A stretch of DNA of 64,000 nucleotides, taken from Candidatus Omnitrophota bacterium. GTDB lineage: Bacteria; Omnitrophota; Gorgyraeia; 2-01-FULL-45-10. The position numbers were made by a program, and so were the translations under genes. The notes under the pieces are model-generated. The model was given only the letters and a program-made list of their open reading frames with translations. It did no database searches and was not told where the DNA came from. How positions within the stretch are numbered: the first letter of the stretch is position 1; each line of letters begins with the position of its first letter. The DNA lies in the NCBI GenBank assembly GCA_041650935.1, contig JBAZKH010000001.1:9243-73242 (forward strand), read 5' to 3'. Below, one piece after another: positions 13,621 to 59,227 of the stretch.

Positions 13621-14306
13621 TAAAGACGGATAAAAAAAGATATTTTTACGATACCTTTGCCGGGGATTTCGACGGCTATATGAACCGGTATGACCTTAAT
13701 AAGAGATTATCGATAGTCTTCGGGATTCTCTCCGGCGGCGGTGAGCTTAAAGGTAAGAGATTGCTCGACCTGGGATGCGGTACCGGCCACTTTTCGAAAT
13801 GTGCGGTTGACGCCGGCGCGGACGTTTACTCTCTCGATATCGGTTTTAACCTCCTCAAAAAGGCCGCGGAAAAATGCGACACAAAACGGATAGTTTCCGA
13901 TGGCGCTTTCATAGGCATAAAGAACGCAACTTTTGACTATGTCATAGCCACCGAAGTCATAGAACATGCCCCCGATCCTAAAGCGGTCCTCGGTGAAGCG
14001 CGCAGGGTGCTTAAGCCTGGCGGGATACTTATATTGACAGTGCCGAACAGGTTCTGGCATTTTACAGTATCCGTTGCCAGGATATTGAGAATAAGAAAAT
14101 ATGACGGGTACGAGAATTGGGTGGGCTATTACGAGCTCCAGCGGTGGCTTCAAGAACTCGGGTTTTCGGTGGAGCGGATATTCGGCTTCCACCTCTTTCC
14201 TTTTGTCGTGCCTTTCCTGAACCCTATACTGAACATACTTGATTCGGGCTCACGTTTCTATTCCCCGGTAATGGTGAATATAGCCGCCAGGTGCAAAAAA
14301 ATATGA
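13617..14306 (+). CDS. class I SAM-dependent methyltransferase
   Basis: LLDLGCGTGHFS motif I, VLKPGGILIL. ATGA overlap upstream. Confidence 0.65.
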   Translation: MIKTDKKRYFYDTFAGDFDGYMNRYDLNKRLSIVFGILSGGGELKGKRLLDLGCGTGHFSKCAVDAGADVYSLDIGFNLLKKAAEKCDTKRIVSDGAFIGIKNATFDYVIATEVIEHAPDPKAVLGEARRVLKPGGILILTVPNRFWHFTVSVARILRIRKYDGYENWVGYYELQRWLQELGFSVERIFGFHLFPFVVPFLNPILNILDSGSRFYSPVMVNIAARCKKI

Positions 14307-15736
14307 AGGTGCTATTTATAAACCCCAGCTGCTCCCTCGAAGAACTTTACGGTGACCTTGCCGGGGGCGGTAATGAATTGCCGCCTCAGACATTGGCCGC
14401 GCTCGCGGCCGTTACCCGCCGCGGCGGATACGATACGGCGATACTCGATTGCCCGGTGCTTAAGATGGATATGGCGGCGATATTAAAGAAGGTCGCCGAT
14501 TTTTCACCTGACTATGTCGGGATCACCGCCACCACGATAACTATGGAGAATGCGGGGCGTATAGCCGCCGGGATAAAAGCCAATACTCCTTCGGCGAAGA
14601 TAATAGCCGGAGGCCCGCACGTTACGGCGCTTGTCGAAGATACTCTTGAGCGATTCCCCGAGATCGACATAGGGGTCGTGGGCGAAGGGGAGGAGACGCT
14701 CATCGAAGTATTGCGCTCTCTAGATAGGAAAGAGCCCTTGGATCAGGTCCGGGGCATTGCCTTTCGCGGGCCGGATAAGCGGATTACCGTTACCGGGAAA
14801 AGAGACCTGATCAGAGATATCGATACCCTGCCGCTCCCGGCATGGGAACTATTGCCGCCCCTCGGTAAGTTTTACAACCCGCCGGGAGATTCGATCAACA
14901 GGATGCCGGCCGTCGGCCTTGTCACTTCGCGCGGCTGTCCCGGAAAGTGCATATTCTGCGACAATCGCACATTCGGCCGCGTCTTCCGCGCGCACAGCCC
15001 TGCCCATGTCCTTAAAATGATAAGGGTCCTCGTCGAGGATCATGGCGTAAAAGAGATATATTTCGAGGACGACTATTTTATGGCCTCACGCAAAAGGTTG
15101 GTCGAGATCTGCAACGGGCTCATCACAGCAAAGTTCGATCTTACGTGGACCTGTACGGGCAGGATATCCAAGTCTATCGATAACGAGCTGCTCAAACTGA
15201 TGAAGAGGGCCGGGTGCTGGCAGATCTGCTACGGCATAGAGAGCGGCTCGCAGGAGATACTGGATATTATAGAGAAGGGTATAAAGCTTGCGGATGTTAA
15301 AGAGTGCGTTGCCAGGACCAGGCGCGCCGGGCTCTCGGTGAAAGGATTTTTCATGCTCGGCAACTTCCTGGAGACGGAAGAGACGATCAGGAAGACGATG
15401 GGGCTGATCCGCGAACTGCCGCTTACAGATTTCCACATGTGCTACTTTGTGCCGTTCCCGGGCTCGGCGGCATATGCGGCCGCGGATAGATACGGCAAGT
15501 TCAATAAAGAGTGGCGGAACATGAACCTGTATGAGCCCAGGGCTTTTGTGCCGGGCGCTCTCACCGAAGACCGGATGAAAGAGAGCTTCAAAAAATGTTA
15601 TGCCGCGCACTATTTTAAACCGTCGGTAATCCTGCACTATGCGCGGAAGATAAAGAATCTCGGCGCGTTGAAAAAACTTATCGTCTCGTTCATTGCTTTT
15701 TTACGGTTTTCTTTTTTCACCGGAAGGGAGGCTTAA
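14303..15736 (+). CDS. cobalamin-binding (class B) radical SAM enzyme #1
   Basis: N-terminal B12-binding Rossmann-like domain (MKVLFINP...IAGGPHVT), SRGCPGKCIFCDN CxxxCxxC cluster. ~477 aa. Confidence 0.75.
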   Translation: MKVLFINPSCSLEELYGDLAGGGNELPPQTLAALAAVTRRGGYDTAILDCPVLKMDMAAILKKVADFSPDYVGITATTITMENAGRIAAGIKANTPSAKIIAGGPHVTALVEDTLERFPEIDIGVVGEGEETLIEVLRSLDRKEPLDQVRGIAFRGPDKRITVTGKRDLIRDIDTLPLPAWELLPPLGKFYNPPGDSINRMPAVGLVTSRGCPGKCIFCDNRTFGRVFRAHSPAHVLKMIRVLVEDHGVKEIYFEDDYFMASRKRLVEICNGLITAKFDLTWTCTGRISKSIDNELLKLMKRAGCWQICYGIESGSQEILDIIEKGIKLADVKECVARTRRAGLSVKGFFMLGNFLETEETIRKTMGLIRELPLTDFHMCYFVPFPGSAAYAAADRYGKFNKEWRNMNLYEPRAFVPGALTEDRMKESFKKCYAAHYFKPSVILHYARKIKNLGALKKLIVSFIAFLRFSFFTGREA

Positions 15737-15743
15737 AGTCCCT

Positions 15744-17090
15744 ATGAATCTCGTGAAGACGGCAATCTTCCTGATACTCGCTTCCGTGACGGTTATGTTT
15801 ACTAACGGGCTCTTTACGCATAAGGTTCAGATCGCCGATCTCATCTTCCTGGCCGTCTTTGTACCGGTGGCAATAAAGTTCATATCGGCCGGAAAAGAGA
15901 TATATCTTTCGCCTTTCATAAAACCTATTAGCGTATATTTACTGGCGGCAGGCTTGAGCATATTCGTTTCGGTGAGCGCTAGGACCACAGCGCTCGAGTT
16001 CGCGGGTACCTTCTATCTCGTCCTACTCTTTCTTTTATGGATAAATATCGTAGATACAAAAAAAATGCTTTATTATGCGGTCTGGTGCTGGGTAGCGATC
16101 AGCGTTGCGGTCGGTCTTGTAGGGCTTTACGGTATCATCCTTGCGTACGGTTTTAATATAAATAATCCATTCGTGACGTTATTTGCCAAGCATCCTTATA
16201 TAAATAACCTCTACAGGGTCCATTCCACTTTCTTCCAGAACGAAAAGTTCTTCTCCAGCTACCTGCTTATCTCGATCCCATTTACGCTGGGCCTGGCATT
16301 CTCCGAAAAGAAGAAGGGAATAAAAGTCTTCCTTTATGCCGCGCTCGCGCTATTCCTTATAAACGTATTCTTCACATATTCCAGGAGCCTTGTGGGCATA
16401 TTGTGCGCGGTCTATATTGTGATATGCAGATCTTCCGGGTATTTTGCGTCGGGGAAGGGTCCTCTGGTGAAGGCGCTTAAAGCAGGAGGGGCCGTCTTGA
16501 TCCTGGCAGTGTGGATAGTGATGACGATATTCTCCTATATACAGTTTATCGATATATCGGCCAGGACCACAAAGCTGTTCGAATTGCCGGAGGAGATGGA
16601 GGAGCCGTTCTATTACAGGAACGATATCGGGATAGAGCGTGCGGATATAACGGTCTATTATAATTATACCTATTATTTCCTACTGAAGAAGTATGCGTTA
16701 AAGATCTTTGCCGAACGTCCTCTTTTTGGCGTCGGCGGCGGCGCTTTCATCGATAAGATGAAGATTTACGAAGATGAAGGACGGGCGCCTAAGGGCTATT
16801 TCCTCTACGATCCGCATTCGACATTCTTCGGGAGCCTTGCGGAGGGCGGCATGATCGGCTTCGGAGTTCTCCTCTTTCTGTGGGGATCGATAATCTTTTC
16901 CATAAAGGACCGGATCAGGGATCGCAAGGATGACTTTATCTTTTATACGCTGGTTGCCGGCTATGCGGCAATCATAGGTTATTTTGTCCAGGCTATCGAT
17001 ATGGATATCATGAATTTCCGCTTCCTGTGGCTCTTGTTCGGGTTTGCCGCGGCGGCTTTGAGGCTGTGCAGGCCGCAGGGCGTCAAATGA
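15744..17090 (+). CDS. polytopic membrane protein, O-antigen ligase/polymerase (Wzy/WaaL-like) family
   Basis: About 10-12 hydrophobic helices with a large loop near the C-terminus. ggaagggagg RBS 13 nt upstream of ATG 15744. Confidence 0.45.
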   Translation: MNLVKTAIFLILASVTVMFTNGLFTHKVQIADLIFLAVFVPVAIKFISAGKEIYLSPFIKPISVYLLAAGLSIFVSVSARTTALEFAGTFYLVLLFLLWINIVDTKKMLYYAVWCWVAISVAVGLVGLYGIILAYGFNINNPFVTLFAKHPYINNLYRVHSTFFQNEKFFSSYLLISIPFTLGLAFSEKKKGIKVFLYAALALFLINVFFTYSRSLVGILCAVYIVICRSSGYFASGKGPLVKALKAGGAVLILAVWIVMTIFSYIQFIDISARTTKLFELPEEMEEPFYYRNDIGIERADITVYYNYTYYFLLKKYALKIFAERPLFGVGGGAFIDKMKIYEDEGRAPKGYFLYDPHSTFFGSLAEGGMIGFGVLLFLWGSIIFSIKDRIRDRKDDFIFYTLVAGYAAIIGYFVQAIDMDIMNFRFLWLLFGFAAAALRLCRPQGVK

Positions 17091-18272: not shown

Positions 18273-19406
18273 GTGTATAAAGCCGATGTTTTAATTATAG
18301 GAGCCGGTGTTGTAGGATTGGCCGTTGCCGAAGAGCTTAGCAAATCTTCGAAGAATGTAGTAGTTGTAGAGAGGAACAAGGGGTTTGGACGGGAGACGAG
18401 TTCGCGTAATAGTGAGGTAATACACGGCGGTATATACTATCCTCCCGGCAGTCTCAAGGCGAGGATGTGTGTCCGGGGCAGGGAGCTCTTATATAAGTTT
18501 TGCATAGAGAATAAGATACCGCATAAGAAGACCGGCAAACTCGTAGTTGCCACAGACAAAGAAGATGTTGCGGCCCTGGAAGAGCTCTTCTCGAATGCTG
18601 TTAAGAATGGAGTGCCGGGATTACGGATTCTCGACGGGAAAGAAGCCGGGAAGATGGAGCCGGAGATCTCCGGGACAGCGGCTCTCTATTCTCCGGAGAC
18701 CGGGATAGTCGATTCGCATGCCCTTATGCAGAGGTTAAACGACAGGGCAAAAGATAACGGCGCCATGATAGCGCTCGATTCCGAGGTCATAGCTATCGAT
18801 GGCCGCGGCTATGATGTAACCGTAGAAGACGCGGATGGAACCGGTAAAATCTCCGCCGGACTTGTGATAAACTGCGCCGGCCTGGATTCGGATACCGTGG
18901 CCGCAATGGCAGGGATAGATATAAAGGAGCGTGGATATGAGCTTCATTATTGCAAGGGGCAGTATTTCCGTGTTAATCAAAAGAAGGCCGCGCGCATAAA
19001 GAGGCTGGTATATCCGGTTCCCGAGCCTAAAGCTGTCGGCCTGGGAATACATGCAACGCCGGATCTCGGGGGAGGGCTTCGCTTGGGGCCCGATCATGAA
19101 TATCTGAAGATCCGCGAAAAGGATTATTCGGTAGACGAGTCGCGGCGCGGAGATTTTTTCGAATCCGCCGTAAGATATATGCCTTTTCTCGAAGAGGAAG
19201 ATATCTATCCTGATACCGCCGGGATAAGGCCCAAACTGCAGGCCCGCGGCGGAGATTTTCGTGATTTTGTGATCGAAGAAGGATCTAAACTGGGATTACC
19301 GGGGTTCATCAATTTAATAGGCATAGAATCGCCCGGACTGACCGCCTCTCTTGCGATAGCTGAATACGTAAGCGGTCTTATCGGGCGCTCACAATCCAAT
19401 GGCTAA
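18273..19406 (+). CDS. FAD-dependent oxidoreductase (L-2-hydroxyglutarate oxidase/glycerol-3-phosphate dehydrogenase-like DAO family)
   Basis: GTG start. DVLIIGAGVVGLAVAEEL dinucleotide-binding motif, 377 aa. Confidence 0.65.
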   Translation: MYKADVLIIGAGVVGLAVAEELSKSSKNVVVVERNKGFGRETSSRNSEVIHGGIYYPPGSLKARMCVRGRELLYKFCIENKIPHKKTGKLVVATDKEDVAALEELFSNAVKNGVPGLRILDGKEAGKMEPEISGTAALYSPETGIVDSHALMQRLNDRAKDNGAMIALDSEVIAIDGRGYDVTVEDADGTGKISAGLVINCAGLDSDTVAAMAGIDIKERGYELHYCKGQYFRVNQKKAARIKRLVYPVPEPKAVGLGIHATPDLGGGLRLGPDHEYLKIREKDYSVDESRRGDFFESAVRYMPFLEEEDIYPDTAGIRPKLQARGGDFRDFVIEEGSKLGLPGFINLIGIESPGLTASLAIAEYVSGLIGRSQSNG

Positions 19407-20934
19407 AGAGAAAAATATAATCCTGATCTATCCCAAGACGGGCATGGACTTCGGCTCGACGGTAGCGCCGCCGCATGCGCTTCTTACGATAGCCGCGCCT
19501 CTACACAGGCAGGGGTACAGGATAGAGATTATCGACCAGAGGGTCGATAAGAATTGGCAGGAGAGGATAACATCGGCTCTCGGGCCGGAGACTATCTGCG
19601 TGGGTATTTCGTGCATGACCGGTACGCAGATATATTTTGCGGTAGAGATCGCAAAGGCCGTAAGAAGGTCCGGTTACGGAAAGGTGCCGATCGTGTGGGG
19701 CGGGCCGCATCCGTCGATATTGCCGGCCCAGACGCTTGCAAAAGAGTATGTGGATATAGTGTGCGTCGGCGAAGGGGACGTTACTTTCCCCGGCCTCGTA
19801 AAGGCGCTGGAGACCGGCTCGCCATTAAGCGGAATAAACGGCATAGCATTTAAAGACGGAGGCAAGGTTATCGTCAATTCCCCGGCGCCATTACTCGATA
19901 TGGAAGATCTGCTGCCTGTGCCGTGGGAACTTATAGACGTGGAAAGATATATTCACCCCGACATGTATCTCAAGAGATCGCGGGTCCTCGACATCGGCCA
20001 GACGAGCAGGGGCTGTCCTTTTAACTGCGGTTTCTGCTGCAGCGCCAGCCTGCGCATGCGGAAGTGGCGCGCCATGTCCGTCGCAAAGAGCCTGGAGAGG
20101 ATCATAGGGCCGGTCAGGAAATTCAACCTGGACGGGGTCTGGATCAGGGATGACGAATTTTATATAGATAGGGATAGAGCGAACAAGATCTGCGCGGAGA
20201 TAGTAAGGGAGGATCTGAATATCCGGTGGTACACTTCGGGGACGAGGGTCGATGTATTCAACAAAGCGTCGGGCGAGCAGACCGCCCTATTAAAGAAGAG
20301 CGGCGCGTATGTATTGAAGTTCGGCGCGGAATCGGGGAATAACAGGATATTGAAACTGGTTAATAAGGGGATAACGGTCGAAGAGACGATCCGCACGAAC
20401 CTCAAAGCCAGGACGCATGATATCATCCCTGCTTTTGCCCTTATGATAGGTTTCCCGACGGAGACATTCGACGAGGTAAACAATACTATCGACCTCATCT
20501 TCCGCCTGAAGAAAGATAATCCAAAAGCGCAGTTCGAAACAATGGCCATATATACGGCGCTGCCCGGTACTCCCATGTACGAGCTGGCGCTCGGCCACGG
20601 CCTTAAGCCGCCGCAGGACCTGGAGGAATGGAGCGACTGGAATTTCGATGAATACGATTTCCCCGGTAAGAGGATACCGTGGTTTAACGCAAGGGAGCGG
20701 GAGCGCCTGGGAAACATCTCATATATGAGCGTCCTTGCCAACGCCCTGCCGAACGCGATAGACAGCATAGAAAATTTATTCCTGAGAAGTTTATTGAAGA
20801 TACTCTACAGGCCCGTGAGCGCCTATTACAGGTTCAGGTTGAGACACAAGATGTACAGTTTTTCCCTGGACCTTGCGGCCGTGAGATACTTAAGAAAGAA
20901 GATATTTTACAGGAGCCATATCGTAGTAAAGTGA
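19399..20934 (+). CDS. cobalamin-binding (class B) radical SAM enzyme #2
   Basis: B12-binding N-domain, SRGCPFNCGFCCS. 511 aa. Confidence 0.75.
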   Translation: MAKEKNIILIYPKTGMDFGSTVAPPHALLTIAAPLHRQGYRIEIIDQRVDKNWQERITSALGPETICVGISCMTGTQIYFAVEIAKAVRRSGYGKVPIVWGGPHPSILPAQTLAKEYVDIVCVGEGDVTFPGLVKALETGSPLSGINGIAFKDGGKVIVNSPAPLLDMEDLLPVPWELIDVERYIHPDMYLKRSRVLDIGQTSRGCPFNCGFCCSASLRMRKWRAMSVAKSLERIIGPVRKFNLDGVWIRDDEFYIDRDRANKICAEIVREDLNIRWYTSGTRVDVFNKASGEQTALLKKSGAYVLKFGAESGNNRILKLVNKGITVEETIRTNLKARTHDIIPAFALMIGFPTETFDEVNNTIDLIFRLKKDNPKAQFETMAIYTALPGTPMYELALGHGLKPPQDLEEWSDWNFDEYDFPGKRIPWFNARERERLGNISYMSVLANALPNAIDSIENLFLRSLLKILYRPVSAYYRFRLRHKMYSFSLDLAAVRYLRKKIFYRSHIVVK

Positions 20935-21919: not shown

Positions 21920-23020
21920 ATGCAGGAAGCCAAGTTTGCCTGTGGTGAGATAGCGAAATATTTTAAGCCGGCGGGTCTGGACAGCCTGGTCCATTTCGTG
22001 ACCTATAAGTGTAATGCCAGATGCGCGCACTGTTTCTTCTCGAAGCAGCTCAACAAAGAAGGCGAGCTCTCCAGGGACGAAATTTTCCGCATGATCGGGA
22101 AACTCGGGAAACTGAAAGGGCTCCTCATCTCCGGCGGAGAGCCGTTTTTGCGGGACGACCTTGCCGGGATCGTGGCCGAATATGCGCTCAGGTGCGGCGT
22201 TGCCGTAGCATCGATTCCCACAAACGGATTTAATACGGACCGGATTATCGGCGCCTGTGAAACCATCTTAGGAAAGTGTAAGAACCTGAACCTGACCGTG
22301 GCTGTCTCCATCGACGCTCTCCACGATGATCATGACAGGCGGCGCGGTTTCCCGGGCGGGTTTGCCAGGGCCGCAGAGACCGCCCGGACTCTTGTCGAGT
22401 TGAAAAAGGCTTATCCGCGTTTGCGCGTGCATATCGTTACGGTTATAATGCCCGACAATGCAAAGACCGTCAGGGCCGTCTCCGGGTTTGTCCGGGACCG
22501 GATCGACCCCGATTATCACTGGTTTGAGCCTATGCGCCGGTTGTCCGGGAAGAGTCTTCCCCTGGAAGGTATCGCGCCGGATGAGTTGAGGAGATTTTTA
22601 AACGAGAATATCATATACTATTTTAAGAAGATCAAAGGCAGTTCGCAGAATATATATTCGAGCCGCAGGCTGAATAACGCCATAATAAATTTTGCGCTCA
22701 ACAACCTTAATATTGCGCTCGACAATTTCTTAGACGGCAAGAGATGGCCGGTCAAATGTGTCGCTGGCAGGAGGATAGCGGTCCTTTACCCGGACGGCGC
22801 CGTCTCGGCCTGCGAACTGCGTGAGCCGGTAGCGACGGTGCGCGATTTCGGTTATGATCTGCGGAGGTTGTTAAAGGACTATAAGTTTAAGGATGAAGTC
22901 AGGGATATATCGAAGGGGAACTGCAGCTGCTTCCACGGCTGTTTCATACCTCCTTCCGTCAGGTTCGATCCGCTCCAGATGGGCCGGCTGGCGTTTAAGA
23001 CGCTTTTCACCAAATACTAA
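21920..23020 (+). CDS. radical SAM enzyme with C-terminal SPASM/twitch-like Cys-rich domain
   Basis: FVTYKCNARCAHCF CxxxCxxC, GGEP motif, C-terminal ..GNCSCFHGCF Cys cluster. 366 aa. Confidence 0.6.
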   Translation: MQEAKFACGEIAKYFKPAGLDSLVHFVTYKCNARCAHCFFSKQLNKEGELSRDEIFRMIGKLGKLKGLLISGGEPFLRDDLAGIVAEYALRCGVAVASIPTNGFNTDRIIGACETILGKCKNLNLTVAVSIDALHDDHDRRRGFPGGFARAAETARTLVELKKAYPRLRVHIVTVIMPDNAKTVRAVSGFVRDRIDPDYHWFEPMRRLSGKSLPLEGIAPDELRRFLNENIIYYFKKIKGSSQNIYSSRRLNNAIINFALNNLNIALDNFLDGKRWPVKCVAGRRIAVLYPDGAVSACELREPVATVRDFGYDLRRLLKDYKFKDEVRDISKGNCSCFHGCFIPPSVRFDPLQMGRLAFKTLFTKY

Positions 23021-24733: not shown

Positions 24734-24737
24734 ATAT

Positions 24738-26731: not shown

Positions 26732-26740
26732 GGTGAAAAG

Positions 26741-31130: not shown

Positions 31131-31134
31131 AATT

Positions 31135-34207: not shown

Positions 34208-34223
34208 TGGGCTGGAGTGTAAA

Positions 34224-34247
34224 ATCGTTTAAAACGTTTTAAACAAT
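34224..34247. promoter_or_regulatory. second copy (23/24) of the operator core ATCGTTTAAAACGTTTTAAAC(A/G)AT upstream of the MarR/GbsR-like regulator
   Basis: ATCGTTTAAAACGTTTTAAACAAT matches 18187-18210 except one base. Lies 16 nt upstream of the regulator's start codon. Confidence 0.45.
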
Positions 34248-34263
34248 ACTAAAGCGAGGTAAT

Positions 34264-34758: not shown

Positions 34759-34769
34759 CGAAAGGCGCG

Positions 34770-41510: not shown

Positions 41511-41514
41511 AAAT

Positions 41515-44651: not shown

Positions 44652-44756
44652 TACCCGGGACGCGGATAGGTTCCCCTGATACTATGGACAAAGAAGTCCA
44701 TCTGGGAAGAAAATGTGGATTGTCTTAACGCATAGTATAAAAAGGAGATAGCAAAG

Positions 44757-48045: not shown

Positions 48046-48054
48046 GACTTTATC

Positions 48055-50836: not shown

Positions 50837-51795
50837 AAAAATACATCGTAACGGGCGGAGCGGGATTCATAGGTTCGAACCTTACCGCGAGGCTTTTAAA
50901 AGACGGCGCAAAAGTCTATGTTATAGACGATCTGTCGACAGGTTTTAAAAGGAATGTGCCTAGGGGCGCCGAATTTTTTAAAGCGGACATAAGTAATTTT
51001 CGCGAACTGAAGGATCTTGATATCCCTGGAAACATAGATGCGGTCTTTCATCTTGCGGCCCAGACATCCGGCGAGGCCTCTTTTGACGACCCTGCAAGGG
51101 ATGTGGAGGTAAACCATAAAGGCACTTACAATGTATTGAAACTTGCGCAGGCCAAAGGATGCGGGAAATTCATATATACAAGCTCTATGAGCGTCTATGG
51201 CGAAGTAAAAAAGACCTCCGGCAAGGTTAGCGAGGGCGACGAATGCCGTCCGGTATCTTATTACGGATGTAATAAGCTTGCGTCCGAAAAACTGATAGAA
51301 GTATTTGCGAAAAATACGGGAATGAAAACGGTTGTGTTAAGGCTCTTTAACGTATATGGTCCCGGGCAGAATATGCTGAATATGAAGCAGGGTATGGTGA
51401 GCATATATATGTCCTATCTCCTTAATAGCAGGCCGGTGCACGTGAAGGGCGGCCTGGACAGGTTCAGGGATATCGTCTATATAGACGATGTAATCGATGC
51501 CCTTATGCTATGTGAAAGTAACCGTAAACTTTGCGGGGAAATTCTTAATATCGGGACCGGCAGGCGGACGACTGTCCGCCGGTTGCTCGAAGTCATGCTG
51601 AAAGCCTATGGGCGAAAGGATTTTCCCGCTTGGGTACGCTGCAGCGGCAATACGCCCGGAGATGTAAAAGGATGTTTTGCGGACACAAAAAAGACGGTCA
51701 GGCTTCTTGGGTGGGAGCCAAAATACGATCTAAAAGAAGGTGTATGCCGTATGAAGACATGGGCCGAGGGGACGATAAGATGGTGGCAAAGATAA
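50833..51795 (+). CDS. NAD-dependent epimerase/dehydratase (SDR)
   Basis: [23 protein letters not shown]. 320 aa. Confidence 0.75.
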   Translation: MKKYIVTGGAGFIGSNLTARLLKDGAKVYVIDDLSTGFKRNVPRGAEFFKADISNFRELKDLDIPGNIDAVFHLAAQTSGEASFDDPARDVEVNHKGTYNVLKLAQAKGCGKFIYTSSMSVYGEVKKTSGKVSEGDECRPVSYYGCNKLASEKLIEVFAKNTGMKTVVLRLFNVYGPGQNMLNMKQGMVSIYMSYLLNSRPVHVKGGLDRFRDIVYIDDVIDALMLCESNRKLCGEILNIGTGRRTTVRRLLEVMLKAYGRKDFPAWVRCSGNTPGDVKGCFADTKKTVRLLGWEPKYDLKEGVCRMKTWAEGTIRWWQR

Positions 51796-52691
51796 TGAAC
51801 GTTTGTAATGTTGTATGTAATCTATGCGGCTCCAGGAATTACGGTGAGATCAAAAAGGGCGTATACGGCAACGCCGCGCAGAATATCTACAAATGCGGCG
51901 CCTGCGGCCATTTCTTCCTCGGGCCGCTTCTGGACGATGCCGAAGAGGAGAGGTTTTACATAGAAGACTATCCGGCGTTCCTTCTGAAGAGGGGTGATTT
52001 TAAAAATACTACGCCGGAGGACCATTTCATCAAGAATGAAAAAGAAGCCCGGCGCAGATTCGGGCTGATCAAGTACCTGCTGGCGAAAGGGCAGAGCGTC
52101 CTCGAAATAGGTTCGGCAAGCGGTTTTTTCTTAAGCAAGATAAAACCCCGCGTGGAAGAAGTCTTCGGGATCGAACCCAATACGGCTTACAGGGAGTATG
52201 CCAATAAAAAAGGTATACCGACCTGCCCGGATATAAAAGAATTGGGTCATAGGAAGTTCGATATTATATTTCTGTATTATGTGCTTGAACATATAAAGGA
52301 CCCGAACGGGTTTTTAAAGCACGTTAAGCATTTTTTAAAGAGTTCAAAGTCCAGGATCGTTATAGAGGTGCCGAATGTCGACGAAGCGCTTGTGTCGTTA
52401 TACCATTCTCCGGCATATAACGAATTTGTCTGGCAGAGGGCCCACTGCAGTTATTTTTCTGCGCTCACCATGGAAAAGTTATTTAAAAGGTCCGGGCTAA
52501 AGGCTAAGTTTATACCCGAGCAGAGATATGATATTTCGAACCACATATATTGGCTCGCAGAGTGCAAACCGGGCGGCGCCGGCAAGTATGCGCATATATT
52601 TTCCGGGGCCCTGAATAGAAAATATGCCGATGATTTGAAGGACAAATGGCTATGCGATACTATTTTGGCCGTCGCGCAGCCTACACGATAA
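51795..52691 (+). CDS. zinc-ribbon-containing class I SAM-dependent methyltransferase (resembles NDP-sugar C-/O-methyltransferases)
   Basis: CNLCGS...CGACGH N-terminal CxxC pairs, then VLEIGSASGFF motif I. Start chosen at ATG 51795 (TAATG overlap). The longer track ORF from 51630 overlaps the upstream SDR. Confidence 0.5.
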   Translation: MNVCNVVCNLCGSRNYGEIKKGVYGNAAQNIYKCGACGHFFLGPLLDDAEEERFYIEDYPAFLLKRGDFKNTTPEDHFIKNEKEARRRFGLIKYLLAKGQSVLEIGSASGFFLSKIKPRVEEVFGIEPNTAYREYANKKGIPTCPDIKELGHRKFDIIFLYYVLEHIKDPNGFLKHVKHFLKSSKSRIVIEVPNVDEALVSLYHSPAYNEFVWQRAHCSYFSALTMEKLFKRSGLKAKFIPEQRYDISNHIYWLAECKPGGAGKYAHIFSGALNRKYADDLKDKWLCDTILAVAQPTR

Positions 52692-52704
52692 AGGAGGTTT
52701 TTAG

Positions 52705-54207
52705 ATGAAAGTATTACTGGTATATCCCAATATGCATGGCATGAATATGCTGCCGTCGGCTATCGCGCTCTTTAGCAGCATACTGAAAGCGCAAGGCCAT
52801 AAAATCGATCTCTTCGATTCCACCAACTGGATGATCCCCGGAGAAGAAGATTTCGACAGCGATAAGGTCAAAGAGCGAAATCTCAACGTCAGGCCTTTCG
52901 ACGATTCGAAACTAAGATCGGAGATGAGACAGACGAACCTCTTCGACGATTTTAAGAAAAAAGTTGCCGGCTTCAATCCCGACCTTATGGCCGTTTCGGT
53001 GAGCGAGGACATATTTCCTATAGGCATCAGATTGCTCGAAACGGTCCGCAGTTTGAATATCCCCACGATCATGGGCGGCGTCTTCCCGACATTTGCGCCT
53101 GAACTTTGTCTTTCGTATGAAGATGTGGACATGGTATGCGTCGGGGAAGGCGAGAGGGCTATCGTGGAACTTTGCGCTAAGATGGAACGGGGAGAACCGT
53201 TCGATAACATAAATAATATATGGGTGAAATCGAACGGCTCGATAAAGAAGAATCCGATGGGCCCGTTAAATAATATGGATGAGAATCCACAGCTCGACCT
53301 GAGCCTCTTCGACAGCTCCCGCCTCTACAGGCCCATGCAGGGAAAAGTCTGGAAAATGGTGCCCGTCGAAACGCACAGGGGCTGTCCTTACCAATGCGCG
53401 TATTGCAACTCTCCGGCGCAGGCCGAACTTTACAGGCGCGAGACCGGCGGTAAGTATTTCAGGAAGAAATCCTTTGCCGCGGTCAGAAAGGATCTGCTCT
53501 ATTTCAGGGACGTTATCAAGGCCGAAGCGTTCTACTTCTGGGCCGATACGTTCATGACCTACAATGATTCCGAGTTTGAGGAGTTTATCGAACTCTATTC
53601 CGATATTAAACTGCCGTTCTGGTGCCAGGCGTTCCCGGAGACCATCAAAGAGGAGAGGATACGGCGGCTCATGAGTGTCGGCCTCTTCAGGCTCAGCAGC
53701 GGCGTCGAACATGGAAACGCGGATTTCAGGGTCAGGGTGCTAAGGCGCCGCGTAAAAAACGATGTAATGATAGAGCATTTTAAAATCCTTAATAAGTGCG
53801 GCCTCCCCTTCAGCGTCAATAACATCATGGGATTCCCGACGGAAACGCGAAAACTTGCGATGGAGACAGTGGAGGTCAACCGTTCCATAGATTCCGACGG
53901 CACGAATGCCTATACCTTTAGCCCGTTTCACGGCACACCGCTGCGGGCAATGTCCGAAAAGCTGGGATATATCGATTCCAAAACGATCGCCAGGTCCGCG
54001 ACCAAACAGAGCCTCTTGCGCATGCCGCAATTTACTCCCGCGGCTATCGAGGGCGTTAGAAGATGCTTTGTGCTTTACGTGAGGATGCCCAAAGATAAAT
54101 GGCCGGATATTGAGCGCGCGGAGAAACTGACGCCGGAGGGCGATAAGATATGGGCGGAGTTAAGGGACGAATGCGCGGAAAAGTATATGAGTTTCTCGGC
54201 CGGATAG
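52705..54207 (+). CDS. cobalamin-binding (class B) radical SAM enzyme #6
   Basis: MKVLLVYPNM..., HRGCPYQCAYCNS. 500 aa. Confidence 0.75.
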   Translation: MKVLLVYPNMHGMNMLPSAIALFSSILKAQGHKIDLFDSTNWMIPGEEDFDSDKVKERNLNVRPFDDSKLRSEMRQTNLFDDFKKKVAGFNPDLMAVSVSEDIFPIGIRLLETVRSLNIPTIMGGVFPTFAPELCLSYEDVDMVCVGEGERAIVELCAKMERGEPFDNINNIWVKSNGSIKKNPMGPLNNMDENPQLDLSLFDSSRLYRPMQGKVWKMVPVETHRGCPYQCAYCNSPAQAELYRRETGGKYFRKKSFAAVRKDLLYFRDVIKAEAFYFWADTFMTYNDSEFEEFIELYSDIKLPFWCQAFPETIKEERIRRLMSVGLFRLSSGVEHGNADFRVRVLRRRVKNDVMIEHFKILNKCGLPFSVNNIMGFPTETRKLAMETVEVNRSIDSDGTNAYTFSPFHGTPLRAMSEKLGYIDSKTIARSATKQSLLRMPQFTPAAIEGVRRCFVLYVRMPKDKWPDIERAEKLTPEGDKIWAELRDECAEKYMSFSAG

Positions 54208-54233
54208 AGCTCGTTCAAATGCAGGAGGAATAG

Positions 54234-55721
54234 ATGAAGGTTTTATTGGTTTACTGCAATACTATGCTGGAAAATGCGATACCCATTTCGGTTTCGCAGT
54301 TATCCGCGTGTTTAAAAAAAGCCGGCATAGACGTCGAACTGTTCGACACCACATTCTACCGCCATGGCGGGAAGAGCGCCATGGAAACACGTATATATGC
54401 CCTGCAGATAGCGCCATGTCCGCTTAACTTTACAGAGGGGGATATGGAGGCCGATTTTGTAAAGCGGATAAATGAGTATCAACCCGACCTGATAGGGCTT
54501 TCGGTGGTTGAACCGACATTCAACCTGGCCGGCAGGCTTTTAAAATGCGCAAAAGAGGTGATAGGGCGGGAAAAGATAAAGGTGGCGGTGGGAGGGGTCC
54601 ACACCATACTTGCTCCCCAGACCATGTTGAAGGCGGAGCCCGTAGATTATATCTCGATCAGCGAAGGCGAGATCGCTTTCGTAGAACTCTGCCGCAGGAT
54701 AAAGAAGGGTCAGGAGACTAAAGATACGCCGGGTTTCTGGGTAAAAGACGGCGATCGATGGATAAAAAATCCGCCGGCTCCGCTTGTCGATATAAATGCC
54801 CTGCCGGGCCTCGACCTGTCTATATTCTCGGAATCATACCTTAATAAGCCTATTATGGGCAGGCTCTACAGGACGATCTCGATAGAGACTACGAGGGGAT
54901 GTCCTTACCATTGCTCGTATTGCGCCGACCAGTCGCTTACCGAACTCTTCAGGTCTTCCGGCAGATGGTACCGCCAGAAGACGATGGAGCGCGTAGAGGC
55001 CGAGCTTAAAGAATCCGTTGCGGCTTACAACCCGGAATTCCTGTATATAATGTCGGAATCGTTCCTTTCCGGGAGCGTGGAGCGCGTAAAAGCCTTTGCC
55101 GATAGCTACCGCGCTTTTTCCACGCCGTTCTGGTTCAATACCAGGCCGGAGGACATTACGAGCGAAAAGGTGAAGATCATCAAGGATATCGGCTGTAAAA
55201 GGATAAGCATAGGCCTGGAGCACGGCAACGAAGAGTACAGAAAAAAATATTTCTATCGCAACTATTCCAACGAGACATTTAAAAAGGCGTGCCGGGTGTT
55301 GAGAGAATACGAGATACCGTTCTCCGTCAATGTTATCCTGGGCGCGCCTTATGACACAAGGCCAATGGTCTTTGAGGCCATCGACCTCTTGCGCGAAACA
55401 AAACCGGACGGCGTAAGCACGTGCATCTTCAACCCTTATTACGGGTCGCACTTAAGAAAAGTATGCCTGCAGGAGAATATGATCGCGCCGGACCTTATAG
55501 CCGCCGATGTCTTCCAGTTCGAATATTGCCTTACAAACAACACTATTTCGAAAGATGCGGTCTTCGGGCTCTTCAGAACTATACCGCTTTATATGGAAAT
55601 GGGCCGGGGTGAAGAATCACGCATAGCGGCGGCGGAGAAACTTGACGACCATGGCAACAAAGTCTTCGAGGAGCTGAGAAAAGAATTTTATAAGATCAAA
55701 GGATGGCAGGATAACGGATAA
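54234..55721 (+). CDS. cobalamin-binding (class B) radical SAM enzyme #7 (cassette A)
   Basis: MKVLLVYCNTMLENAIPISVSQLSACLKKAG..., TRGCPYHCSYCAD. 495 aa. Close paralogue of 57734-59227. Confidence 0.75.
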   Translation: MKVLLVYCNTMLENAIPISVSQLSACLKKAGIDVELFDTTFYRHGGKSAMETRIYALQIAPCPLNFTEGDMEADFVKRINEYQPDLIGLSVVEPTFNLAGRLLKCAKEVIGREKIKVAVGGVHTILAPQTMLKAEPVDYISISEGEIAFVELCRRIKKGQETKDTPGFWVKDGDRWIKNPPAPLVDINALPGLDLSIFSESYLNKPIMGRLYRTISIETTRGCPYHCSYCADQSLTELFRSSGRWYRQKTMERVEAELKESVAAYNPEFLYIMSESFLSGSVERVKAFADSYRAFSTPFWFNTRPEDITSEKVKIIKDIGCKRISIGLEHGNEEYRKKYFYRNYSNETFKKACRVLREYEIPFSVNVILGAPYDTRPMVFEAIDLLRETKPDGVSTCIFNPYYGSHLRKVCLQENMIAPDLIAADVFQFEYCLTNNTISKDAVFGLFRTIPLYMEMGRGEESRIAAAEKLDDHGNKVFEELRKEFYKIKGWQDNG

Positions 55722-55724
55722 AAA

Positions 55725-57725
55725 ATGGCGACTCTGATAATATTCGACTCATCGGTATGCGGAAAAGAGGCTTCTGCGGTAAAATTGCCGGGAAAGACGG
55801 ACGAGGCAGTCCTCTTTCCGCTTACATCCGACAGCGGGATAACGTCGGAATTCTTCAATATGGTTACAGCGGCAGGTTTTAAAGCCCGCTTATTGGACAC
55901 AGCAGGCCTGATAAACTCGGCGGCAGAAGAGCTGAGGGGCAGGTATTTGAAATTCATAGCCGACATGCCGGATAATGTCATTGCGGGCAATAAGAATATA
56001 AAAGAGATGTTCGCCTTGGACGGCGACACATCGTTATGGTGGCTTAGCCTTGTTGCCGGCAAAAGCAATTTTAAATCTATCGCGTTTAACAGTATTGCCC
56101 AGCTGGACGCGATGATAAAAGCGATAGGTGATAACGGTATAGATAATGCAGTATACGCCGGCCGTGACCATACGCTGAGGAAATCTTTCTTAGAATATTG
56201 CAGAGAGAAGCGAATATTGGTTAAGTGTCTGCCCGGCGCCGGATTTAAGGATATCCTCGACGGGGCGCTTCAATGGAAGCCGGTTGTATACCTCGGGCAT
56301 ATCTATTTTCTATTCAGGGCCGCGGCGGGATTTTTGGTCAGGATGTCAAGAGCGCGGAATATGGCGTCGAGGGCAGGCGGACCCGGCAGGGTAAAGCCGG
56401 GCTTTGAACATCCGATGCTCATAACCTATTATCCTGTAATAGACACAGCGCTTGCCGGGCAGGGCATATTCAAAAATATCCATTATGACTACATCCAGGA
56501 GGCGCTGGAATCTAAAGGCCAAAAACCGGTTTGGGTCGCCCTGTATCTTAAAAATCCGGCGGTCTCGCACGCCGAAGCCGTTAAATATGCCGAAAAATTT
56601 ATCAAGAACGGATATTCTATCTACATGCTTGACGAATTCGGATCCGTTCGAAGCCATCTGGCGGCTTTCCTGCGGATAATATCATTCGGGATGAAATTTT
56701 TGTTTTACGAAAGGTCCATAGCAAAGCTGCATGATCTCGGTGGTTACAATGTGTATGATTTTTTGAAAAATGACTGGTATTCATCTTTCTGCGGGTCGGC
56801 GGGTTATAGCGCCATCCTATATTACGAGATGTTTAAATCGATGTTTGCGGCCTCGCAGTACAAAAAATGTTTCTTCCAATGCGAGATGCAGCCGTGGGAG
56901 AAGGCGCTCATAAGCGCCAGGAATTTCCTGGGAAGTTCCTCCTGCCTGGTTGGGTATCAGGCCGGGGTTCCGGCAAGAATGCTTTTAGGATGTTTCAACC
57001 ATCCTGCGGAATTCAGGCGGGATTGCCGGTATCCGATGCCCGTCCCGGACAAATATGTATGTAACGGCAATGTCACATTTAACAACCTGAAGGAGTGCGG
57101 TTGGCCGGAAGATACATTAGGTATAGTCGAGGCGGTCCGCTATAACTATCTAAAGAGATATTTGGAATCGAGATGGGATAAGAAAAGAAAAGTCGTCCTG
57201 CTCCTTTTTTCGATAAGCGTGCACGAATCGAGCGCCATATTAAATACGGCTTACCATGCTTTAAAAGGGCTTGACGGCGTGGAGGTATGGATGCGTCCGC
57301 ACCCGTTTATAAGTATCGAGAGCGTGCTGAAACAGTCCGGCCGCGGCATAAACGATATACCGTTTGTGATCAAAGACGGGCCGCTCGCTGACTCTCTCCG
57401 TGAGGCGAGGATAGTAATAGGGGGCGAATCCGGCACGTGTGTAGAAGCCCTGGCCTTCGGCTGTAATGTCGTTCTGGTCAATAACCCGGAATGGATCAAT
57501 ATGTCGTCTTTGAAGCACGAAAAATCCGGCAATATTAAAACGGCCGGCTCGGCGGAAGAGCTTAAGAGTATCGTTACCGGGATACTGGCGCAAGCGTATG
57601 ACCCCGGAGTATTGAAAAAAGAGTCGGCCAGGATAATAGGGAATTATTATTATCTCGATCCCGCTTCGGATACGCCTTCAAGGATACTGGAGCTCTTGAC
57701 GCCGTTTGAGGCTAAGAAAGGATAG
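55725..57725 (+). CDS. large hypothetical protein (666 aa) with GT-B-like C-terminal segment (cassette A)
   Basis: C-terminal ...ARIVIGGESGTCVEALAFGCNVVLVN resembles the E..G helix of GT-B glycosyltransferases/2-epimerases. Paralogue of 59228-61213. Confidence 0.45.
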   Translation: MATLIIFDSSVCGKEASAVKLPGKTDEAVLFPLTSDSGITSEFFNMVTAAGFKARLLDTAGLINSAAEELRGRYLKFIADMPDNVIAGNKNIKEMFALDGDTSLWWLSLVAGKSNFKSIAFNSIAQLDAMIKAIGDNGIDNAVYAGRDHTLRKSFLEYCREKRILVKCLPGAGFKDILDGALQWKPVVYLGHIYFLFRAAAGFLVRMSRARNMASRAGGPGRVKPGFEHPMLITYYPVIDTALAGQGIFKNIHYDYIQEALESKGQKPVWVALYLKNPAVSHAEAVKYAEKFIKNGYSIYMLDEFGSVRSHLAAFLRIISFGMKFLFYERSIAKLHDLGGYNVYDFLKNDWYSSFCGSAGYSAILYYEMFKSMFAASQYKKCFFQCEMQPWEKALISARNFLGSSSCLVGYQAGVPARMLLGCFNHPAEFRRDCRYPMPVPDKYVCNGNVTFNNLKECGWPEDTLGIVEAVRYNYLKRYLESRWDKKRKVVLLLFSISVHESSAILNTAYHALKGLDGVEVWMRPHPFISIESVLKQSGRGINDIPFVIKDGPLADSLREARIVIGGESGTCVEALAFGCNVVLVNNPEWINMSSLKHEKSGNIKTAGSAEELKSIVTGILAQAYDPGVLKKESARIIGNYYYLDPASDTPSRILELLTPFEAKKG

Positions 57726-57733
57726 GCGAAAAG

Positions 57734-59227
57734 ATGAAGATACTGCTTGTATATTGTAACGCCATGCTGGAGAATGCGACGCCGATGTCGATTTCGCAGT
57801 TATCCGCGTGCCTGAAACAGGCGGGTATGACGGTGGAACTATTCGATACGACATTTTACCGCTATGGCGGCAAGAGCGCCATGGAGAACCGGATCGAGGC
57901 GCTGCAGATAGCGCCGTGTCCGCTGAATTTTATCGAGGGCGATATAGAAGAGGAATTCGTAAAGAAGATAACCCGGTTCCAGCCCGACGTGATCGGGTTT
58001 TCGGTAGTAGAGCCGATGTTTGGCCTTATGACGAGGCTTATGAAGTGCGCGCAAGAGGTGATAAAGAAGAATAATATAAAAGTAGCGGTGGGGGGCGTCC
58101 ACGCCATACTTGCCGCGGAAACTTTCCTGGGCGAAGAGATGATAGATTATATTTCGATCAGCGAAGGCGAAACGGCTTTTGTGGAACTGTGCCGCAGGAT
58201 AGAAAAAAAGATGAGAACCGACGATGTGGCCGGATTCTGGGTAAAACAGGACGGACTCTGGATAAAGAACGGGAAAGCGCCGATCGTCGATATAAATAAC
58301 CTGCCGAGCCTCGACCTGTCCATATTCTCGGAGTCGTATCTGAACAAGCCTATGATGGGGAGATGCTACCGGACGATCTCGGTCGAGATAACGCGGGGAT
58401 GCCCTTACAACTGTTCATACTGTGCCGACAGGACGCTGACGGAGTTATTCAAGGCCTCGGGCAGATGGTACAGGCAAAAGACTATGCAGAGGATAGAGGC
58501 CGAGTTTAAGGAATTGATAGCGTTATATAACCCGGAGTTCGTATATATCATGTCCGAGTCGTTCCTCTCCGGCAGTATAAAACGGATCGCCGAATTTGCC
58601 GACATGTACCGCAAGTTTTCCATACCGTTCTGGTTCAATACGAGGCCTGAAGATATAACCGAGGAGAAGGCGCGGCTTATAAAAGAGATCGGATGTAAAA
58701 GGATAAGCATAGGCCTGGAGCACGGCAACGAGGCGTATAGGAAAAAATTTATGTATCGCAACTATTCGAACGAAACTTTTAAACGGGCATGTGGGATACT
58801 GACGGATTGCGGCATATCGTTCTCGGTCAATCTTATCATAGGCGTTCCTTTCGATACGCGGGAGATGATATTTGAAGCTATCGATCTATTGCGCGAGGCC
58901 GGGCCGCAGGGAGTAAGCACTTTTATTTTCAGCCCGTATCATGGGTCGGACTTAAGGGGAGTGGCCGCGAGAGAGCGGATGATAAAACCGGACCTTATAG
59001 CGGGAGATTATTTCCAGCTCGATTATCAACTGACCAATAATACTATCTCGGAGGAGGAGGTCTTCGGCATGTTCAGGACGATACCTCTCTATATCGAATT
59101 GGATAAAAAAGAGTTTCCGCGCATCAAAAAGGCGGAAAAGTTCGACCGGGCGGGTGATGAGGCTTTCGCGGAGCTTAGGGGAGAGTTCTATAAAATGAAA
59201 GGCTGGCAGCTGCCTCAAAAGGTATAA
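57734..59227 (+). CDS. cobalamin-binding (class B) radical SAM enzyme #8 (cassette B)
   Basis: MKILLVYCNAMLENATPMSISQLSACLKQAG..., TRGCPYNCSYCAD. 497 aa. Confidence 0.75.
   Translation: MKILLVYCNAMLENATPMSISQLSACLKQAGMTVELFDTTFYRYGGKSAMENRIEALQIAPCPLNFIEGDIEEEFVKKITRFQPDVIGFSVVEPMFGLMTRLMKCAQEVIKKNNIKVAVGGVHAILAAETFLGEEMIDYISISEGETAFVELCRRIEKKMRTDDVAGFWVKQDGLWIKNGKAPIVDINNLPSLDLSIFSESYLNKPMMGRCYRTISVEITRGCPYNCSYCADRTLTELFKASGRWYRQKTMQRIEAEFKELIALYNPEFVYIMSESFLSGSIKRIAEFADMYRKFSIPFWFNTRPEDITEEKARLIKEIGCKRISIGLEHGNEAYRKKFMYRNYSNETFKRACGILTDCGISFSVNLIIGVPFDTREMIFEAIDLLREAGPQGVSTFIFSPYHGSDLRGVAARERMIKPDLIAGDYFQLDYQLTNNTISEEEVFGMFRTIPLYIELDKKEFPRIKKAEKFDRAGDEAFAELRGEFYKMKGWQLPQKV

Follow-up and report, generated by a model that had tools for sequence, protein, structure and literature searches.

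Eight B12-type radical SAM enzymes in a large Omnitrophota glycan locus, at least four of them within conserved nucleotide-sugar cassettes

The stretch of DNA analysed here (the window) is 64,000 nucleotides long and comes from a Candidatus Omnitrophota bacterium (GenBank assembly GCA_041650935.1, contig JBAZKH010000001.1, positions 9,243 to 73,242 of the forward strand). It carries eight genes for enzymes that join an N-terminal B12-binding domain to a radical S-adenosylmethionine (SAM) core, all within one very large glycan locus. Identical proteins are encoded on the ENA contig ERZ27247363:k141_609193 (170,744 bp), where the window corresponds to positions 9257-73256. All 53 genes of the window lie on the forward strand in a co-directional array with tiny intergenic gaps. 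Downstream of housekeeping genes, the glycan locus opens at an LptC/LptA-like gene (window position 870) and spans at least 73 kb and more than 60 genes on one strand, the window being its first 63 kb; it continues for at least 10 kb beyond the window end (L003, 10733-20732). The eight genes, R1 to R8, are listed here with the cluster motif of each product:

14291-15736, +, R1, 481 aa, first ATG at 14303; SRGCPGKCIFC; PF02310 80.4 bits, PF04055 78.7 bits; preceded by a SAM methyltransferase gene (13617-14306) and followed by wzy (15693-17090)
19399-20934, +, R2, 511 aa; SRGCPFNCGFC; after an FAD oxidoreductase gene (18273-19406) and before a GT2 glycosyltransferase gene
28451-29902, +, R3, 483 aa, first ATG at 28457; SLGCPYNCSFC; inside cassette A (see below)
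41515-42897, +, R4, 460 aa; ARGCPFSCTFC; after a carbamoyltransferase gene (39708-41510) and before genes for two family-less proteins (42894-44651, 44757-46508)
48055-49731, +, R5, 558 aa (533 aa, start 48130, in the public gene call); GRGCPFKCTYC; directly after the gene of a Wzx-like flippase
52705-54207, +, R6, 500 aa, B12-binding plus radical SAM; HRGCPYQCAYC
54234-55721, +, R7, 495 aa, 71% identical to R8; TRGCPYHCSYC
57734-59227, +, R8, 497 aa, B12-binding plus radical SAM; TRGCPYNCSYC

Profile searches with Pfam place all eight proteins above both thresholds, at 37.9-80.4 bits for PF02310 (B12-binding, cutoff 32.1) and 55.9-84.3 bits for PF04055 (Radical_SAM, cutoff 29.5). The B12-binding domain is N-terminal in each and weakest in R5 (37.9 bits), and a CxxxCxxC motif for a [4Fe-4S] cluster is found in all eight between residues 206 and 234. 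An earlier sequence-only reading of this DNA had described eight open reading frames (ORFs) of this architecture that share an R/L-G-C-P-x-x-C-x-F/Y-C cluster, and both parts of that description are borne out in every case; of the start positions it gave, 14303 and 28457 turn out to be the first ATGs within slightly longer ORFs with GTG or TTG starts (14291 and 28451). The AlphaFold model of R8 (pLDDT 93.6) finds its best Foldseek matches in OxsB, TsrM, MgmA, AprD4, CysS and TokK with TM-scores of 0.60-0.74, and as modelled it has the architecture of a class B radical SAM enzyme. Binding and catalytic use of cobalamin by the eight enzymes, for which no reliable sequence motif exists, are predicted from the domain, which AprD4 also has although it binds no cobalamin. 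An Rfam scan of the window matched no family, hence no cobalamin riboswitch.

The eight had been taken for paralogues of one local set, which the comparison among them contradicts. Pairwise identity is only 22-31%, with R6 about 31% identical to both R7 and R8 over the full length; the single exception is the R7/R8 pair at 71%. For every one of the eight, the best match outside the window exceeds any match within it: R3 shares 62% identity with a protein from Planctomycetota, and R6 and R8 are 76% and 74% identical to proteins of the metagenome-assembled genome (MAG) GCA_041643055.1; the identity of R6 to its orthologue in locus L087 is 76%. This low mutual identity, together with the closer relatives outside, argues for at least six old subfamilies and not a local expansion, with R7/R8 as the only recent duplication, in which the neighbouring gene was copied along. 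No radical enzyme of the window, in a scan that also covered a ninth one without a B12 domain, reached an NCBIfam equivalog cutoff, and none can be assigned to a named family. HpnJ, BchE, PhpK, HpnR, KedN5, TsrM, BzaD, MCR glutamine methyltransferase, AprD4, ApyD and ArsL all went unmatched at their curated cutoffs. The best score among the eight is that of R1 against HpnJ (201.6 bits, cutoff 577.6), and in proportion to the cutoff every other score is lower. The top NCBIfam match is HpnJ for R1, R3 and R4, and BchE for R2 (146 bits, cutoff 481). By sequence, the nearest solved structure for R1 and for a profile of R6 to R8 is AprD4 (6fd2), followed by OxsB, MgmA, TsrM, CysS and TokK.

Two groups of genes around these enzymes recur in other phyla. 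The first, cassette A, surrounds R3 and was delimited with Pfam and NCBIfam (23762-32058, +):

23762-24733, +, pyruvate dehydrogenase (PDH)-E1 alpha-like protein
24675-25781, +, PDH-E1 beta-like protein
25778-26731, +, short-chain dehydrogenase/reductase (SDR)
26741-27748, +, GHMP sugar kinase
27745-28467, +, sugar-1-phosphate nucleotidyltransferase, followed by R3 (28451-29902)
29895-31130, +, RfbH/DegT-type pyridoxal phosphate (PLP) enzyme
31135-32058, +, GDP-fucose-synthase-like (Fcl-like) SDR

The R3 family is large (6575 matches at E<=1e-30) and 52-77% identical across Omnitrophota, Planctomycetota, Chloroflexota, Kiritimatiellota, Lentisphaerota and Gamma- and Deltaproteobacteria, that is, at least six phyla. 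In a Deltaproteobacteria MAG (L091), orthologues of all seven cassette A partners form, together with GmhA and GmhB, one run that ends in the R3 orthologue, and most partners are also present beside the R3 orthologue in loci of Planctomycetota and Kiritimatiellota. A metagenome scan with R3 gave 80 loci, of which the 43 that are at least 9 kb long were used for counting co-occurrence. The partners were found in 47-86% of these: the RfbH/DegT-type enzyme in 37, the GHMP kinase in 33, the SDR in 32, the Fcl-like SDR in 24, E1 beta in 23, E1 alpha in 22 and the nucleotidyltransferase in 20. The R3 orthologue was the sole B12-radical SAM gene in 32 of the 43, so that cassette A stands alone there and appears, from gene content and synteny, to encode an independent, conserved route to a nucleotide sugar that includes one radical step. 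Another variant of cassette A is the locus on the Planctomycetota chromosome CP070728 (L089, 722335-739774), where four B12-radical SAM genes are accompanied by genes for an HMGL-like synthase, a class I/II aminotransferase of 413 aa and a protein of 998 aa with an FGE-sulfatase domain.

The second group, cassette B, is of CMP-sugar type, includes R6, R7 and R8, and runs from 49709 to 63874 (+) and past the window end:

49709-50836, +, GFO/IDH/MocA oxidoreductase
50833-51795, +, SDR
51630-52691, +, SAM methyltransferase, followed by R6, R7, a GT-B-fold protein, R8 and a second GT-B-fold protein
55725-57725, +, GT-B-fold protein, 666 aa, partner of R7; TIGR04326 198.7 bits (cutoff 250)
59228-61213, +, GT-B-fold protein, 661 aa, partner of R8; TIGR04326 175.2 bits (cutoff 250)
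61210-62055, +, methyltransferase
62060-63127, +, HisC-like aminotransferase; hisC 243 bits (cutoff 276)
63143-63874, +, HAD-like hydrolase

Past the window the cassette goes on with an HpcH/HpaI aldolase, two successive CTP_transf_3 proteins, an SDR and a GT2. It was compared with five loci: L004 (Vulcanimicrobiota), L005, L006 (Brocadiales), L087 and L088. All five contain an R6 orthologue, an R7/R8 orthologue and a HisC-like class I/II aminotransferase together, the aminotransferase adjoining the R6 orthologue in every one. CTP_transf_3 is likewise present in five of five; the four complete copies are PseF-like orthologues of those at the window locus, the L088 copy being cut at its start and left out of that comparison. 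An SDR of about 291 aa and a HAD phosphatase each occur in four of the five, one or two SAM methyltransferases recur, and the loci often include a SPASM radical SAM enzyme about 330 aa long. A PGDH-like 2-hydroxyacid dehydrogenase is found in all five; the window has the GFO type only, and L004, L005 and L087 have both types. GT-B-type proteins of 500-660 aa occur in some loci, with a clear TIGR04326-type orthologue only in L088 and weak matches in L087 and L005. A phosphonate route of the Fom3/FrbH kind, which the cytidylyltransferase and the HisC/CobD-like enzyme had brought to mind, was set aside: there is no phosphoenolpyruvate (PEP) mutase, and the TIM-barrel protein scores as HpcH/HpaI.

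The two GT-B-fold proteins are 38% identical to each other and align with TIGR04326 over the full length yet score below its cutoff, which puts them outside the curated family. For the 661-aa protein a sequence search of the PDB gave no match, and the GT-B fold became visible only after modelling: the AlphaFold model (pLDDT 87.2) matches UDP-GlcNAc 2-epimerases and GT-B glycosyltransferases in Foldseek at E values near 1e-9. The protein is a putative transferase for a modified sugar, and its family comprises 5372 clusters. With R7 and R8 at 71% identity and their partners at 38%, the radical SAM and GT-B genes appear to have been duplicated as one unit (R7+GT-B and R8+GT-B).

Homologues of R8 at 39% identity or more come from Omnitrophota, Vulcanimicrobiota, Thermodesulfobacteriota, Brocadiales and other Planctomycetota, all without an assigned protein name. 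In a scan of genome contigs with the R6-8 profile, the matches listed are mostly distant (22-38% identity), come from many phyla in mixed contexts and are weak for synteny. Also among the matches listed are relatives (25-39% identity) in DPANN MAGs (Woesearchaeota, Nanoarchaeota, Pacearchaeota) and in Hadarchaeota, at loci L011, L014, L020, L023, L026, L033, L046, L049 and L051; these archaeal relatives indicate a family that crosses domains.

The setting was described before as one of nucleotide-sugar enzymes, glycosyltransferases and Wzx/Wzy-like genes, and Pfam over all ORFs shows that it is real. Ugd, RmlABCD, a second UDP-sugar dehydrogenase, DegT aminotransferases and SDR epimerases or dehydratases are present, as are five GT2 proteins, Wzy_C, a Wzx-like protein, NeuB, cytidylyltransferases, an AsnB-like amidotransferase and a carbamoyltransferase. 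Five ordinary SAM methyltransferases belong to the locus as well. Past the window end follow, besides the aldolase, the CTP_transf_3 genes and the GT2 named above, SDRs, a GT4, a UDP-GlcNAc 2-epimerase, methyltransferases and a PMT_2-type GT-C protein. The main blocks within the window are:

3160-12120, +, ordinary precursor genes: Ugd, RmlC, RmlA, RmlB, RmlD, the second UDP-sugar dehydrogenase, two SDRs and a DegT aminotransferase
15693-17090, +, Wzy_C-type polymerase or ligase; PF04932 44.4 bits (cutoff 31.7), 10 predicted transmembrane segments
34264-39403, +, ulosonic-acid-type block: MarR/CudC-like regulator, CTP_transf_3 (34770-35465), AsnB-like amidotransferase (35473-37326), short NeuB (37329-38027) and GT2 (38030-39403)
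46477-48045, +, Wzx-like flippase; PF01943 23.9 bits (below the 28.2 cutoff), 10 predicted transmembrane segments

The Wzx-like protein scores 430 bits against the Polysacc_synt-annotated orthologue of L004, and both a Wzy polymerase or ligase and a Wzx flippase, the pair expected of a Wzx/Wzy-dependent heteropolysaccharide locus, are thus present. The radical enzymes had been assigned to this locus as working parts of it, and for four of them the assignment gains weight from orthologues in other phyla that keep the same sugar-nucleotide neighbours.

Domain content, motifs, fold, the division into subfamilies and conserved synteny are observed; substrates, use of cobalamin and reaction type are predicted from them. 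Taken together, we consider it somewhat better than an even chance that the eight enzymes are sugar-tailoring enzymes for a Wzx/Wzy-type surface glycan, each recruited together with its own pathway cassette, and that C-methylation is their likeliest chemistry. For R3 and R6-R8, whose partners are conserved, we infer action on nucleotide-activated sugars or their immediate precursors. In cassette A, the GHMP kinase and the nucleotidyltransferase would activate a sugar, which would then be remodelled by the SDR, the RfbH/DegT-type PLP enzyme and the fucose-synthase-like epimerase/reductase, with an optional two-carbon branch added by the PDH-E1-like thiamine enzyme and R3 contributing one radical step. 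With its HisC-like aminotransferase, oxidoreductase, SDR, phosphatase, SAM methyltransferases and PseF-like cytidylyltransferase, and with two radical steps by R6 and R7/R8, cassette B would supply a CMP-activated acidic or amino sugar. The GT-B-fold proteins at 55725 and 59228 would transfer its product, the duplicated pair providing two variants of the residue, and Wzx and Wzy would export the polymer. At the chemical level, reductive cleavage of SAM would yield a 5'-deoxyadenosyl radical, this radical would remove a hydrogen from an unactivated carbon of the sugar or of a side chain, and methylcobalamin would then donate a methyl group to that carbon, as in GenK, GenD1 and Fom3. By analogy with these enzymes, such C-methylation is the likeliest reaction of R3 and R6-R8, and radical-modified sugars of a novel type are probably the products of at least four of the enzymes. 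The wider proposal is that C-H functionalisation by class B enzymes, as C-alkylation or rearrangement, is a direct step in two or more nucleotide-sugar pathways that are widespread and undescribed, among them an NDP-sugar pathway with R3 and a CMP-sugar pathway with R6, R7/8 and the HisC-like enzyme, and that new monosaccharide classes result; we hold this as a tentative proposal, a little short of an even chance.

Several observations weigh against this interpretation. Where no curated equivalog cutoff is reached, a reaction cannot be transferred by homology; the nearest solved relative of R1 and of the R6-8 profile, AprD4, is a sugar diol dehydratase that works without cobalamin, and the top NCBIfam family of R1, R3 and R4, HpnJ, is a proposed sugar ring-contraction enzyme. 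In the sampled loci, strong conservation of neighbours was not seen for R1, R2, R4 or R5. An initiating phosphoglycosyl transferase was not seen in the window (no Bac_transf or Glycos_transf_4 match among 52 window proteins), no recognisable condensing enzyme adjoins cassette B, and the PGDH-like dehydrogenase, the aminotransferase and the HAD enzyme could be a trio that makes a small amino-acid-like substituent instead. Synteny, moreover, fits a nucleotide sugar as substrate as well as it fits a lipid-linked or polymerised glycan. A rival account keeps the glycan context and gives some or all of the eight another chemistry, namely AprD4-like dehydration or deoxygenation, epimerisation, C-C bond formation or HpnJ-like ring contraction, the 'B12' domain being only a structural Rossmann domain. 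AprD4 is not only the top PDB sequence match for R1 and the R6-8 profile, it also has, normalised to the target, the highest TM-score among the matches of the R8 model (0.74); HpnJ heads the matches of three enzymes, SDR and GFO reductases beside R3, R5 and R6 could complete a dehydration as AprD3 does, and five ordinary SAM methyltransferases are already present in the locus. The matches to AprD4 are weak, however (77-79 bits, and 44-83 bits in the NCBIfam scan, against a 500-bit family cutoff; mostly over the radical SAM core), the B12-binding threshold of Pfam is passed by all eight, the best Foldseek E-values of R8 belong to the cobalamin-binding OxsB and TsrM, and most characterised class B enzymes are methyltransferases. 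This account is the main rival: we hold it to be less likely than our own reading, but the nearest relatives of the enzymes give it serious weight.

Another rival concerns timing. R1 lies beside wzy and a GT2 gene, R2 and the radical SAM gene at 21920 lie between GT2 genes, R5 is beside wzx, R7 and R8 each adjoin a GT-B protein, and a PMT_2-type GT-C gene lies downstream, as might be expected if the radical enzymes acted late, on an undecaprenyl-linked repeat unit, a finished polymer or a glycoprotein, and not on soluble nucleotide sugars. Inspection of the first 60 residues of each of the eight gave no prediction of a signal peptide or a membrane anchor; radical SAM enzymes require cytoplasmic reductants; and the enzymes that co-vary with R3 and R6-8 are those that make precursors (kinase, nucleotidyltransferases, aminotransferases), not polymerases. 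Late action is improbable as a general explanation. It is possible for R1, R2 and R5, which have Wzy, GT2 and Wzx genes as neighbours and for which the sample showed no strongly conserved partners. Far less credible still is a product outside glycan metabolism, such as tailoring of lipids of hopanoid, ladderane or tetraether type, or a ribosomally synthesised and post-translationally modified peptide (RiPP), with the enzymes merely embedded in a glycan locus. NCBIfam does return HpnJ, a 'lipid biosynthesis B12-binding/radical SAM protein', ApyD and RiPP C-methyltransferases, all far below cutoff; the 53 genes of the window include none for lipid synthesis, precursor peptides, proteases or RiPP export, the intergenic gaps are tiny, and the conserved neighbours are sugar enzymes. 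A RiPP or lipid role was rejected for want of supporting genes.

A ninth radical SAM gene lies between GT2 genes and lacks a B12 domain:

21920-23020, +, radical SAM enzyme, 366 aa; PF04055 63.8 bits, Fer4_12 22.5 bits

It had been called SPASM-type, of which the radical SAM part stands; the SPASM domain itself has no HMM support, and what remains is a cysteine-rich C-terminus. The protein has a CNARCAHC cluster at residues 31-38, Pfam SPASM (PF13186, a seven-cysteine motif) found no match in it even at E<=5, and its scores against NirJ-type SPASM models of NCBIfam are far below cutoff. Five C-terminal cysteines, at 280, 298, 335, 337 and 341 (CVAGRRIAVLYPDGAVSAC...CSCFHGC), and a SPASM-like CxxG...DG...C first half point to a possible partial SPASM/twitch motif. 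An orthologue (130 bits) in L087 adjoins GT2 and CTP_transf_3 genes.

Other genes of the locus deserve mention. The FAD oxidoreductase beside R2 (18273-19406) is close to L-2-hydroxyglutarate oxidase (278 bits, cutoff 299), and its orthologues (466-490 bits) are found inside R3-type cassettes of the metagenome loci L147 and L164. The first gene of the glycan locus (870-3071) encodes a protein of 733 aa that has a single transmembrane segment, at its N-terminus, resembles LptC, LptA and the LptD N-terminus weakly and is much longer than LptC or LptA. The protein encoded at 32048-34207 (719 aa, about 11 predicted transmembrane segments) has no Pfam or NCBIfam family, even with a lenient Pfam scan, and could be a novel polymerase, ligase or oligosaccharyltransferase; GC and AT skew are reversed in this region. 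Between R4 and wzx lie genes for two soluble, mutually dissimilar proteins, 42894-44651 (585 aa) and 44757-46508 (583 aa), to which lenient Pfam scanning likewise assigns no family, the only hints being an LIC12162-family transferase (E 0.0097) and an AsnB-like region (E 6.6e-5). The NeuB at 37329-38027 has only 232 aa and matches model positions 3-249 of 329, without the usual C-terminal domain, and the GT2 that follows it shows a weak, sub-threshold CTP_transf_3/PseF-like match at its C-terminus. No Wzz chain-length regulator was matched among the 52 window proteins, the part of the locus past the window not having been fully scanned. At 34197-34758, in mid-locus, the MarR/CudC-like regulator gene (164 aa; CudC 78 bits against a 218-bit cutoff) is directly preceded by TTGACA-17-TAAAAT, which with 11 of 12 matches is the best sigma-70-like site within window positions 31000-50000; together they suggest a separate, regulated transcription unit for the CMP-sugar half of the locus. 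About 5 kb upstream of the window (L002, 3801-4442), a 213-aa corrinoid-type protein (B12-binding_2 plus B12-binding) adjoins a DUF1015 protein and a carboxyltransferase subunit and may be relevant to cobalamin handling.

Nine radical enzymes in one polysaccharide locus had been judged far beyond ordinary clusters, and against characterised loci this is so: no characterised example of a glycan locus with several B12-radical SAM genes was found. The judgement does not extend to uncultured lineages, where two to five such enzymes per 17-21 kb recur in Omnitrophota, Planctomycetota/Brocadiales, Vulcanimicrobiota and others. A Vulcanimicrobiota MAG has five in 21 kb, a Planctomycetota chromosome four in 17 kb and a Brocadiales contig four. 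The window is an extreme example of this recurrent, uncharacterised arrangement in uncultured anaerobes. That the system is undescribed agrees with what we found, in that no curated family or paper covers the eight enzymes. In the searchable literature no paper ties B12-type radical SAM enzymes to O-antigen, capsule, exopolysaccharide, nonulosonic acid, heptose, nucleotide sugars or Omnitrophota. The words sugar, glycan and polysaccharide are absent from a 2026 review of class B enzymes, in an Omnitrophota preprint radical SAM comes up solely as a domain of giant proteins, and a match in the Arcobacter literature was irrelevant. A paper on the S-layer glycan of Kuenenia reports heavy methylation inferred from mass alone, which is a lead and not evidence.

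It is important to consider what such a locus would mean. The two definable, conserved cassettes point to a metabolic role for class B radical SAM enzymes that has not been described. These enzymes are known from antibiotics, cofactors, lipids and peptides. Both cassettes are compact, conserved across phyla and abundant, with thousands of R3 homologues and more than 5000 clusters of GT-B partners; they therefore offer concrete gene sets whose expression could reveal new sugar chemistry. Many B12-radical SAM genes in metagenomes of anaerobes are unassigned, and part of this large pool would be accounted for as well. If our interpretation is true, new monosaccharide classes occur on the surfaces of uncultivated anaerobic bacteria and possibly of DPANN archaea, and surface-glycan structure in these organisms would be tied to cobalamin availability.

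Known systems resemble the locus in parts. HpnJ (TIGR03471), which acts in hopanoid cyclitol-ether formation by a proposed rearrangement of a glucosamine ring, likewise joins a B12 domain to a radical SAM core and is the best-scoring curated family for R1, R3 and R4, but these reach only 136-202 bits of the 577.6 required and the locus has no hopanoid genes. AprD4, the 1,2-diol dehydratase of apramycin, is a radical SAM enzyme that acts on an amino sugar and binds no cobalamin; its structure (6fd2) has the same fold as the R8 model, including the N-terminal Rossmann domain, whereas in sequence the similarity of the eight is mainly confined to the radical SAM core, far below the family cutoff. 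TIGR04326, the LIC13510 family of surface carbohydrate biosynthesis proteins, has no known function and resembles the 666- and 661-aa proteins over their whole length. NeuB, the AsnB-like protein and the PseF-like cytidylyltransferases recall the pseudaminic and legionaminic acid pathways, from which the locus differs in the aminotransferase of cassette B, HisC-like and not DegT-like, and in the short NeuB.

PDH-E1-like pairs such as AviB1/B2 add two-carbon branches to deoxysugars. Cassette A combines a kinase, a nucleotidyltransferase, an SDR, RfbH-like and Fcl-like enzymes and E1 alpha/beta in a manner that recalls AviB1/AviB2 (avilamycin), AlmDI/DII (aldgamycin), HddA/HddC, RfbH and Fcl, but its partners fall below the equivalog cutoffs of these pathways except for E1 beta. 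The equivalogs of GDP-D-glycero-D-manno-heptose synthesis went unmatched in it (HddA 152.9 bits against 600, HddC 118.2 against 300), and GmhA and GmhB accompany the orthologous cassette in L091. We know of no version of an E1-branching, GDP-heptose or 6-deoxyhexose pathway that includes a B12-type radical SAM enzyme. Fom3 of fosfomycin synthesis, a class B enzyme, methylates CMP-activated 2-hydroxyethylphosphonate, and cassette B likewise always has a cytidylyltransferase beside its radical enzymes; compared by gene content, the two differ in that no PEP mutase or phosphonate genes are seen here and the cytidylyltransferase is of KdsB/NeuA/PseF type. GenK and GenD1, class B enzymes that C-methylate the aminoglycoside sugars of gentamicin, work on free pseudo-oligosaccharide antibiotics in actinomycete secondary metabolism, unlike the nucleotide-sugar cassettes of a surface glycan considered here. 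Compared by domain architecture and type of substrate, they share with the eight enzymes the B12-binding plus radical SAM architecture and methylate an unactivated carbohydrate carbon, which makes them the most likely model for the chemistry of this locus.

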